From sequence record PZ445517.1: a stretch of 64,000 bases of DNA; one strand, given 5' to 3'. The position numbers and the translations under genes were made by a program. Below are positions 44,955-46,165 of the stretch, one piece after another. The notes beneath the pieces were generated by a model. It had not been told where the DNA came from, made no database searches, and worked only from the letters and a program-made list of their open reading frames with translations. Each line of letters starts with the position of its first letter. Within the stretch, counting starts at the first letter, position 1. Source of the DNA: a phage.

Positions 44955-45030
44955 TGGTCGAGGCAGTAGGGATCGAACCTACGACCCAGGACTTAGAAGG
45001 TCCTTGCTCTTCCTTCTGAGCTATGCCTCG
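44955..45030 (-). tRNA. tRNA-Arg (anticodon UCU)
   Basis: Hand-folded cloverleaf: acceptor CGAGGCA/TGCCTCG, anticodon loop CTTCTAA, T-arm GTAGG-TTCGATC-CCTAC, encoded CCA. Confidence 0.8.
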
Positions 45031-45034
45031 GATT

Positions 45035-45109
45035 TGGCGGACGTGATAGGATTCGAACCTATAACCAATCGCTTAACAGGCGATCGCTCTGCCATTGAGC
45101 TACACATCC
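45035..45109 (-). tRNA. tRNA-Asn (anticodon GUU)
   Basis: Acceptor GGATGTG/CACGTCC, anticodon loop CTGTTAA, T-arm ATAGG-TTCGAAT-CCTAT, CCA encoded. Confidence 0.7.
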
Positions 45110-45113
45110 AAAT

Positions 45114-45200
45114 TGGTGGGGAGTGATGGAGTCGAACCACCCGAGTCGCAATGACAATGGATTTACAGTCCACACCGCTACCTCTACGGGATAACTCCCC
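45114..45200 (-). tRNA. tRNA-Tyr (anticodon GUA), long variable arm
   Basis: Acceptor GGGGAGT/ACTCCCC, anticodon loop CTGTAAA, 15-nt variable arm, T-arm GGTGG-TTCGACT-CCATC; D-arm not resolved by hand. Confidence 0.6.
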
Positions 45201-45209
45201 AAATTAATT

Positions 45210-45284
45210 TGGTGGCCCTGGGTGGAATTGAACCACCATCTGGCGATTATGAGTCGCTTGCTTGAACCTTCCAGCTACAGGGCC
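45210..45284 (-). tRNA. tRNA with CAU anticodon (Ile-lysidine type or Met)
   Basis: Acceptor GGCCCTG/CAGGGCC, anticodon loop CTCATAA, T-arm GGTGG-TTCAATT-CCACC, CCA encoded. Confidence 0.65.
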
Positions 45285-45293
45285 AAATTTTTC

Positions 45294-45779
45294 TTATTTT
45301 ATGTAATATTTATTTAAAAACTTTCTAGCTTGAGTATGGCTAACATTTATAGCGTTTGCATAATTTTTAATAAAACCTCGTTCATCCATATTAAAATTTT
45401 CTAATATTTTTAATCGTCTAATTATCTCATCTTGGCTTAAGGTACTTGCATTATTTTTAGAAATTTTTTCTAAAGACTGCACTGAGTGTTTTCGACCATT
45501 AAAATTAAAATTTTTAGGTTTTGGAGGAAATCTATCATTTAGTCTCGCATCTTTTGTATTTTGATTATTAGTTGCGCAATATATGTTATTTAATGAGTAT
45601 GGTCCTTTATCACCAAAACGACACATACAGTATTCATGACCCTTTCTTCCACGCTTATCATAATTTCCTGTTGATTTCCACCAATTTAACCACTCATCAA
45701 AAGTTAAATTCCATTCAATGTTTCTACGTATAGCAGAATTCCGCTGAGAAATATATTTTGCATAATCTTCTTTCATCAC
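45294..45779 (-). CDS. hypothetical protein inside tRNA cluster with Cys/His-rich nuclease-like segment and C-terminal HTH (possible mobile-element endonuclease)
   Basis: 161 aa; RRNIEWNLTFDEWLNWW...GHEYCMCRFGDKGPYSLNNIYCATNNQN; C-terminal VSHTQARKFLNKY resembles the HTH tail of the HNH protein at 46172..46804. Confidence 0.5.
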   Translation of the reverse strand: MMKEDYAKYISQRNSAIRRNIEWNLTFDEWLNWWKSTGNYDKRGRKGHEYCMCRFGDKGPYSLNNIYCATNNQNTKDARLNDRFPPKPKNFNFNGRKHSVQSLEKISKNNASTLSQDEIIRRLKILENFNMDERGFIKNYANAINVSHTQARKFLNKYYIK

Positions 45780-45823
45780 AAATTTCTCTACTTATTACAT
45801 GCACTAAGCTAAATCAGCAAAAC

Positions 45824-45913
45824 TGGCGGAGGCGATAGGATTTGAACCTATGAGTCGCCGGAGCGACTGCCGGTTTTCAAGACCGGTGCATTAAACCACT
45901 CTGCCACGCCTCC
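45824..45913 (-). tRNA. tRNA-Ser (anticodon UGA), long variable arm
   Basis: Acceptor GGAGGCG/CGCCTCC, anticodon stem-loop CCGGT-CTTGAAA-ACCGG, variable-arm hairpin, T-arm ATAGG-TTCAAAT-CCTAT. Confidence 0.8.
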
Positions 45914-45915
45914 AG

Positions 45916-45989
45916 TCTCCATACAAGGATTTGAACCTTGGACCTCCTGATCCCAAATCAGGCGCTCTACCAAACTGAGCTACACGGAG
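45916..45989 (-). tRNA. tRNA-Pro (anticodon UGG), no encoded CCA; 2 nt from tRNA-Ser (dimeric precursor arrangement)
   Basis: D-arm GCTC-AGTTTGGTA-GAGC, anticodon stem-loop CCTGA-TTTGGGA-TCAGG, T-arm CAAGG-TTCAAAT-CCTTG. Confidence 0.75.
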
Positions 45990-45999
45990 TAAATTAAAT

Positions 46000-46073
46000 T
46001 GGAGCGGATAATGAGAATCGAACTCACATCATCAGATTGGAAGTCTGAGGTAATGCCATTATACGATATCCGC
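46000..46073 (-). tRNA. tRNA-Gly (anticodon UCC)
   Basis: Acceptor GCGGATA/TATCCGC, anticodon stem-loop TCAGA-CTTCCAA-TCTGA, CCA encoded. Confidence 0.75.
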
Positions 46074-46078
46074 AAATT

Positions 46079-46165
46079 TGGTGCGAGAAGTGGGACTCGA
46101 ACCCACAAGGAAATCATTCCGCAGCATTTTAAGTGCTGTGCCTTTACCAATTTGACCATTCTCGC
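46079..46165 (-). tRNA. tRNA-Leu (anticodon UAA), long variable arm
   Basis: Acceptor GCGAGAA/TTCTCGC, anticodon stem-loop CAGCA-CTTAAAA-TGCTG, T-arm GTGGG-TTCGAGT-CCCAC, CCA encoded. Confidence 0.8.

Follow-up and report, generated by a model that had tools for sequence, protein, structure and literature searches.

The closest described counterparts of the locus analyzed here are the transfer RNA (tRNA) clusters of the T-even phages T4 and T2L. In T4 (NC_000866), the gene order is Gln-Leu-Gly-Pro-Ser-Thr-Ile-(segB)-Arg-rnaD-rnaC, and the cluster is transcribed as one precursor that starts at a middle promoter just upstream and ends after the species I RNA (PMC2330249). In T2L (AJ880101), the order is Gln-Leu-Gly-Pro-Ser-(trna.1)-CAU-Tyr-Asn-Arg-(trna.2)-rnaD-rnaC. 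The T2L cluster (EMBL AJ880101) and its exchange with the T4 type by a homing endonuclease were published in 2008 by Brok-Volchanskaya et al. (PMC2330249). The enzyme, T4 SegB, is a GIY-YIG homing endonuclease whose preferred 27-base-pair (bp) site lies inside the T2L tRNA-Asn gene. During co-infection of T4 and T2L, SegB drives the nearly complete replacement of approximately 1,250 bp holding the CAU ("Met"), Tyr, Asn and Arg genes and two T2L open reading frames (ORFs) (PMC2330249). The tRNA cluster is non-essential and dispensable in the laboratory (PMC2330249). Here, we describe the corresponding cluster in a 64,000-nucleotide (nt) stretch of phage DNA (sequence record PZ445517.1), referred to below as the window.

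The tRNA and stable-RNA operon

The window matches Escherichia phage T4_ev240 (LR597657.1; Straboviridae, Tequatrovirus) at 100% identity, and the record of that phage already carries an annotation of the same eight tRNAs. Applied to the whole window, ARAGORN called eight tRNA genes and no others; each of them lies on the minus strand (Table 1). The same program found no further tRNA gene in the remaining 103 kilobases (kb) of the T4_ev240 genome (166,954 bp); therefore, the eight represent the complete set of this phage. An earlier note on this DNA had arrived at eight minus-strand tRNAs by hand folding, and ARAGORN returned the same order, anticodons and coordinates. The Rfam tRNA model lent further support, recovering seven of the eight genes at 59-74 bits (E 1e-11 to 1e-15; gathering score 29); the class-II, long-arm Tyr gene was caught only by the clan relative tRNA-Sec model, below the threshold of that family. 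ARAGORN revealed neither other anticodons nor overlooked Gln or Thr genes. As the earlier note had reported, tRNA-Gln and tRNA-Thr are lacking: both the window and the rest of the T4_ev240 genome are without such a gene, and only short 5′ stubs were found. The T4 set given in the note (Gln, Leu, Gly, Pro, Ser, Thr, Ile and Arg) agrees with the T4 record. We conclude that the amino-acid repertoire differs from that of T4 by the absence of Gln and Thr and the presence of Tyr and Asn, and by nothing else, when the CAU tRNA is taken as tRNA-Ile2 (see below).

Table 1. Features of the cluster, given as window positions from the upstream to the downstream end of the operon
Feature	Coordinates	Strand	Remarks
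tRNA-Gln stub	46785..46793	-	first 9 nt (TGGGAATTA); preceded by T4-like upstream region
Putative HNH endonuclease ORF, free-standing	46172..46780	-	202 amino acids; in place of the Gln body; ATG at 46780, stop at 46172
tRNA-Leu(UAA)	46079..46165	-	ARAGORN; CCA encoded; 100% to T4 and T2L
tRNA-Gly(UCC)	46000..46073	-	ARAGORN; 98.6% to T4 and T2L; 84% to Escherichia coli glyT
tRNA-Pro(UGG)	45916..45989 (ARAGORN 45915-45989)	-	no encoded CCA; 5′ half of Pro-Ser dimer; 100% to T4 and T2L
tRNA-Ser(UGA)	45824..45913	-	ARAGORN; CCA encoded
tRNA-Thr stub	45803..45818	-	first 16 nt, 15/16 identical; alignment to phage Ozark
160-amino-acid ORF	45294..45776	-	homologue of T2L trna.1; phrog_16521; in place of Thr; separates the two tRNA blocks
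CAU-anticodon tRNA	45210..45284	-	ARAGORN "Met"; 100% to T2L; 61% to T4 Ile
tRNA-Tyr(GUA)	45114..45200	-	ARAGORN; class II; 98.9% to T2L
tRNA-Asn(GUU)	45035..45109	-	ARAGORN; 100% to T2L Asn
tRNA-Arg(UCU)	44955..45030	-	T2 type; 100% to T2L; 62.5% to T4 Arg; 74.7% to E. coli argU
rnaD (species 2 stable RNA) homologue	44834..44953	-	100/121 columns identical to annotated T4 rnaD, 88/120 to T2L
rnaC (species 1 stable RNA) homologue	44689..44827	-	136/139 identical to T4 rnaC
Intrinsic terminator closing the operon	44615..44638	-	10-bp stem, 7 GC pairs, then T run

The genes form two blocks on either side of a protein gene, as had been claimed, and that gene is the 160-amino-acid ORF. Per-gene identity to T2L is 98.6-100% throughout. 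In the first block, Leu and Pro are 100% identical to the T4 genes and Gly and Ser nearly so; all four are shared with T4. In the second block, the low identity of Arg to T4 Arg and of the CAU tRNA to T4 Ile indicates a different module rather than a diverged copy. The Asn gene, identical to that of T2L, has the GGTTCGAATCC...CCAA elements and carries the preferred 27-bp SegB recognition site. The Pro-Ser pair described in the earlier note, with a 2-nt spacer and a Pro gene lacking an encoded CCA, was read directly from the sequence: the Pro discriminator A (45916) is followed by a CT spacer (45914-45915) and then by G1 of Ser. At the 3′ end of Ser (45824-45826), CCA is encoded in the window, in T2L and in Ozark; T4 has UAA there. 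Because Ser encodes its CCA, within the cluster only Pro would need the host CCA-adding enzyme.

We consider it very probable that the locus is the Tequatrovirus tRNA and stable-RNA operon in its widespread T2-type form. On the minus strand, eight intact tRNA genes, rnaD and rnaC are flanked by the conserved trna.2/trna.3 genes on one side and by a terminator behind rnaD-rnaC on the other, the position of this operon in T-even phages, and the second block reads CAU-Tyr-Asn-Arg instead of the T4 order Ile-segB-Arg. The first block deviates from the Gln-Leu-Gly-Pro-Ser pattern with its Gln-Leu and Pro-Ser dimers, in that Leu, Gly, Pro and Ser are present and Gln is reduced to a 9-nt stub; this Gln-less sub-variant occurs in 64 records. 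The features of the T4-type cluster, namely segB (the GIY-YIG homing endonuclease gene) between the sub-clusters, Thr, and T4-type Ile and Arg, are absent, and neither the ORF listing nor the annotation of the identical record contains a segB gene in the cluster.

Over the 403 nt upstream, identity to the T4 trna.2 region is 97%. Since this T4-like upstream region, rnaD, rnaC and a strong terminator are all kept, we infer that the genes would be expressed as one precursor transcript that starts in the T4-like promoter region preceding the Gln stub. The precursor would be processed by host RNase P, and tRNA-Pro would be completed by the host CCA-adding enzyme. A sigma-70 scan found 14 candidates compared with 12.4 expected in shuffled sequence, and we name no promoter. 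The rnaC region (44693-44831) folds with z = -4.0. In permissive mode, Rfam returned no family for the rnaC/rnaD region in a search of 43000-48000; the other sub-threshold matches (Plastid-ycf2, sX4, YrlA and others) merely overlap the tRNAs and were dismissed.

The operon shares with T2L the order Leu-Gly-Pro-Ser-(trna.1-type ORF)-CAU-Tyr-Asn-Arg-rnaD-rnaC, the Thr stub, the CCA of Ser and the Asn gene with the SegB target. However, T2L retains tRNA-Gln where the window has the HNH gene, and it has an ORF (trna.2 of AJ880101) between Arg and rnaD that the window lacks. The trna.1-type ORF has its full length of 160 amino acids in the window compared with 133 in T2L, and the rnaD of the window is nearer to that of T4 (83%) than to that of T2L (73%). 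With T4, the window shares the genomic position, the flanks (trna.2, trna.3, rnaC and rnaD) and the Pro-Ser dimer architecture, but it lacks segB, Gln and Thr and adds Tyr and Asn. The phage vB_EcoM_Lutter (MT682714 / NC_054924; 97.6% identity over the region) has the same eight tRNAs, with Gln and Thr replaced by the HNH gene and the 160-amino-acid ORF, respectively, but it differs from the window by an extra 345-bp ORF between Arg and rnaD. A mosaic junction is visible at 44834-44960, where the T2-type Arg gene adjoins rnaD directly in the T4 fashion, whereas T2L and Lutter have an ORF of approximately 350 bp in between.

The tRNA-Gln and tRNA-Thr sites

Both losses were traced to the place where the T4-like or Ozark-like sequence breaks off. 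At the Gln site, an alignment with T4 at 97% identity covers the trna.2 gene, the intergenic region and nucleotides 1-9 of tRNA-Gln, breaks off there and resumes at the 5′ end of tRNA-Leu. The start of the HNH ORF lies four bases past the break in Gln homology. The encoded protein matches phrog_14736 "HNH endonuclease" (E 6e-124). The site is polymorphic, with both flanks conserved: the HNH allele occurs in 64 phage records and the Gln allele in about 433 (the Gln gene was counted in 433 of 50,697 phage records). The HNH gene is therefore present in some and absent from other genomes at a single site in otherwise collinear surroundings. We regard this ORF as a candidate homing endonuclease gene, for which cleavage and biased inheritance are predicted.

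At the Thr site, the informative relative is Ozark, in which Ser, Thr and the CAU tRNA are contiguous. The alignment to Ozark, at 99.2% identity, passes through Ser, the GTTTT spacer and nucleotides 1-16 of Thr, and homology restarts exactly at 45284, the first base of the CAU tRNA. Since stubs stand at both ORF junctions, the absences of Gln and Thr are read as scars of ORF insertions. Judging from these junctions, Gln and Thr have each been replaced by an inserted ORF, and the two losses are independent of one another and of the presence of Tyr and Asn.

The 160-amino-acid ORF has few relatives, with homologues in only three clusters among 5.8 billion proteins. No Pfam domain was found in it, and BLASTP gave no significant similarity to the neighbouring HNH protein. 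An eL37 match in a sequence search of PDB (E about 0.09) was set aside as chance. The family shares the invariant motif YCMCRxGDxGPYSLxNIYCATNxQN, which by eye may resemble the HNH_3 motif with its histidines replaced. An AlphaFold2 model from a shallow alignment had a predicted local distance difference test (pLDDT) score of 63, with residues 37-97 below 50 and the C-terminal 60 residues confidently helical. We conjecture that the ORF is possibly a degenerate homing-endonuclease gene.

Codon demand, counter-defence and the CAU tRNA

The role of the tRNAs was evaluated by comparing the codon usage of 99 ORFs called heuristically in the window (18,384 codons) with that of 41 annotated E. coli K-12 genes (14,485 codons). 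The phage/E. coli ratios of the units read by the eight tRNAs are 8.3 for AGA, 4.5 for AUA, 3.4 for UCA, 3.1 for GGA, 2.75 for UUA, 1.82 for UAY, 1.58 for AAY and 1.33 for CCA; those of the missing tRNAs are 3.0 for ACA and 1.48 for CAA. The eight units rank 1, 2, 3, 4, 6, 10, 12 and 20 of 45 (Mann-Whitney p = 1.5e-5), and by the same usage ratios the units of the T4 set rank 1, 2, 3, 4, 5, 6, 16 and 20. Among the NNY units, UAY and AAY show the strongest enrichment, and among the amino acids, Tyr and Asn come second and third. RB69, which has only the CAU tRNA and Arg(UCU), reads with this pair exactly the two top-ranked codons. These observations fit the classical codon-supplementation model, in which the tRNAs would top up codons that are much more frequent in the AT-rich phage than in E. 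coli (AGA, AUA, UCA, GGA, UUA, UAY and AAY).

Several points weigh against this account of the operon, either against the supplementation model or against the homing-endonuclease reading of the inserted ORFs. CCA ranks merely 20th of 45. The tRNA-His of close relatives, alone among the tRNAs of the family, is unexplained by codon demand (CAY ratio 0.72, rank 33 of 45). The E. coli reference comprises only 41 K-12 genes, and the phage ORF calls are heuristic. The dispensability of the cluster in the laboratory suggests that any benefit would be modest or host-dependent. As for the inserted ORFs, the HNH protein scores 17.3 bits against a Pfam HNH cut-off of 21.4, and the 160-amino-acid ORF has no recognisable domain and is poorly modelled over residues 37-97.

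An alternative to codon supplementation as the main function is that the additional tRNAs for Tyr and Asn (and, in relatives, for His) mainly replace host tRNAs destroyed by anticodon nucleases, with supplementation being secondary. The candidates are the tRNA-Tyr-depleting PtuAB of retron-Eco7 and colicin-E5-like enzymes, which cut tRNAs with QUN anticodons (Tyr, His, Asn and Asp). The four substrates of colicin E5 include Tyr, Asn and His, which speaks for this alternative, as does the failure of codon demand to account for His. Moreover, a tRNA-Tyr of the T5 family protects phages against retron-Eco7 (PMC11555353), and a counter-defence role of phage tRNAs has been proposed in general terms (PMC10264068). 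The window tRNA-Tyr belongs to the same phage tRNA-Tyr lineage, with 83% identity to that of a T5-like phage compared with 65% to host tyrU; its variable and T arms are identical to those of the T5-family gene. However, the T5-family gene belongs to a different phage family and genomic context, and protection by the T-even copy is a prediction. The retron-Eco7 paper (PMC11555353) was found to contain no T-even data, which counts against the alternative. Additionally, Tyr, Asn and Arg have the same anticodon loops as E. coli tyrU, asnT and argU. They thus lack the loop mutations proposed as a signature of nuclease evasion and would be expected to be cleaved as well. Demand alone explains both Tyr and Asn, as the two most enriched NNY units.

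Overall, we consider it rather unlikely that replacement of destroyed tRNAs is the main role, although the phage genes may simply supplement a depleted tRNA. The earlier note had invoked both host codon bias and tRNA-targeting host nucleases; the first part fits the usage ranks, and the second finds no support in the sequence, the loops being identical to those of the host. Whichever role applies, compensatory pair changes were observed across seven tRNA-Tyr genes with RNAalifold, counted in the acceptor, anticodon and T stems only, since the D and variable arms gave no clean cloverleaf and were not used. These stem changes indicate functional constraint on tRNA-Tyr.

Codon supplementation also bears on the identity of the CAU tRNA. 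ARAGORN and the records LR597657.1 and AJ880101 label this gene as Met (codon AUG), and these labels are what favours an elongator tRNA-Met. In a spread sample of the ranked E. coli matches (5,426 genomes), however, all were annotated tRNA-Ile, and both of those fetched have a CAT anticodon. Identity to these E. coli CAT-anticodon tRNA-Ile genes is 76-82% (top 81.6%; two genes compared), and in one variant the whole anticodon arm and the acceptor stem are identical; identity to elongator tRNA-Met is 63% and to tRNA-fMet 60%. The determinants that TilS recognizes in the acceptor stem are C4-G69 and C5-G68. Both pairs are present in the acceptor stem GGCCCUG/CAGGGCC read from the window. The anticodon is CAU, and among the E. 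coli matches sampled the nearest homologues are of the ileX/ileY kind rather than metT or metY. AUG is under-used by the phage (ratio 0.83, rank 32), whereas AUA is enriched 4.5-fold, and the homologous gene is entered as Ile/Ile2-CAT in the records of Lutter and Ozark. An elongator tRNA-Met is thus very unlikely. The sequence evidence indicates that the CAU tRNA is almost certainly a tRNA-Ile2 that reads AUA, which would be lysidinylated by host TilS; it differs from the E. coli tRNA-Ile2 (ileX/ileY, with lysidine) in the D and T arms. The earlier note had cautiously left it as a "CAU-tRNA", a label that holds, and the evidence now points to Ile2. The Met label looks like an annotation error that has been repeated across many T-even records.

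It is extremely improbable that a single coordinated adaptation to a host of different codon bias exchanged Gln and Thr for Tyr and Asn: although the sets of the window and T4 are about equal by codon demand (rank sums 58 and 57), we rejected this reading because the four differences lie at three separate sites, relatives show other combinations (Gln, Tyr and Asn in Ec_MI-02; Thr, Tyr, Asn and His in Ozark; Gln, Tyr, Asn and His in REP1; and yet another in T6), both losses bear the scar of an ORF insertion, and the Thr codon ACA still ranks fifth in demand, so that the loss of Thr was not driven by demand.

Module traffic among T-even phages

The same modules recur in relatives in different assortments. 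Ec_MI-02 has nine tRNAs (the eight of the window and Gln), REP1 has ten (the eight, Gln and His), and Ozark has ten (the eight, Thr and His) with an HNH gene replacing Gln. In REP1 (1036-1111) and Ozark (736-811 of the retrieved pieces), tRNA-His(GUG) lies between Asn and Arg. The T6 record (AP018814) has Gln, Leu, Gly, Thr, a T4-type CAU tRNA, Tyr, a segB-sized ORF and Arg. In its cluster (1044-2335), Pro and Ser are missing, a T2-type Tyr stands beside the T4-type CAU tRNA, the segB-sized ORF is annotated "serine recombinase", and the annotated Thr was not called by ARAGORN. By its gene content, T6 is another mosaic of the same modules.

Among the 50,697 phage records, the CAU-Tyr-Asn-Arg block was found at a coverage of at least 80% in 378, compared with 47 for the Thr-Ile pair of T4 at the same threshold. 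T4 is atypical, and it is a poor reference for a "typical" T-even tRNA set. The departure from T4 that the earlier note had singled out as a notable swap loses its weight for this reason, and also because T2L was published in 2008 and the losses and gains lie at separate sites.

Single genes of the second block also occur outside T-even phages. The CAU and Tyr genes share 98.7% and 96.6% identity with their counterparts in rV5 (NC_011041; 1203-1289 and 1774-1848 of the retrieved piece), where their order differs. This match to an rV5-like phage of an unrelated family (Vequintavirinae) suggests that individual tRNA genes have recently passed between phage families. The E. coli plasmid pEC881_2 (NZ_CP019027), of approximately 109 kb, carries an Asn-Tyr-Thr-Ser tRNA cluster (1454-2280 of the retrieved piece) whose Tyr is 94% identical to that of the window. 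Plasmids of this kind were the best "E. coli genome" matches for the second block, and judged from their size, these tRNA-bearing plasmids of approximately 109 kb may be phage-plasmids. Flanking the cluster on the minus strand are several small ORFs (44271-44564 and 47839-48766) whose products start with MKTFKEF, MKTYQEFIAEA or MKSYAQFLNEA, N-termini that may resemble the capsid-targeting sequence of T4 internal proteins.

The tRNA set of the window was described accurately in the earlier note, but it is already known, being a published, widespread allele in a deposited genome, and its value as a discovery is small. Our analysis adds an explanation of the losses through two tRNA stubs, the assignment of the CAU tRNA to Ile2 and a ranking by codon demand. 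The gain lies in annotation: the CAU tRNA should be labelled Ile2, the absences of Gln and Thr are explained by their stubs, and T4 is unsuited as the typical reference.

For the family as a whole, we suggest that the tRNA content of each T-even phage would be set largely by the traffic of free-standing homing endonucleases through a non-essential region. The one prospective question is whether T2-type phages are shielded by their additional tRNA-Tyr from tRNA-Tyr-depleting defences. We regard it as quite unlikely, if worth stating, that the T2-type tRNA-Tyr, perhaps with Asn (and His in relatives), acts in counter-defence and protects T2-type Tequatroviruses, but not T4, from tRNA-Tyr depletion such as that by retron-Eco7 PtuAB. 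If this were true, a SegB-driven swap to the T4 cassette would trade defence evasion for the spread of a selfish gene.

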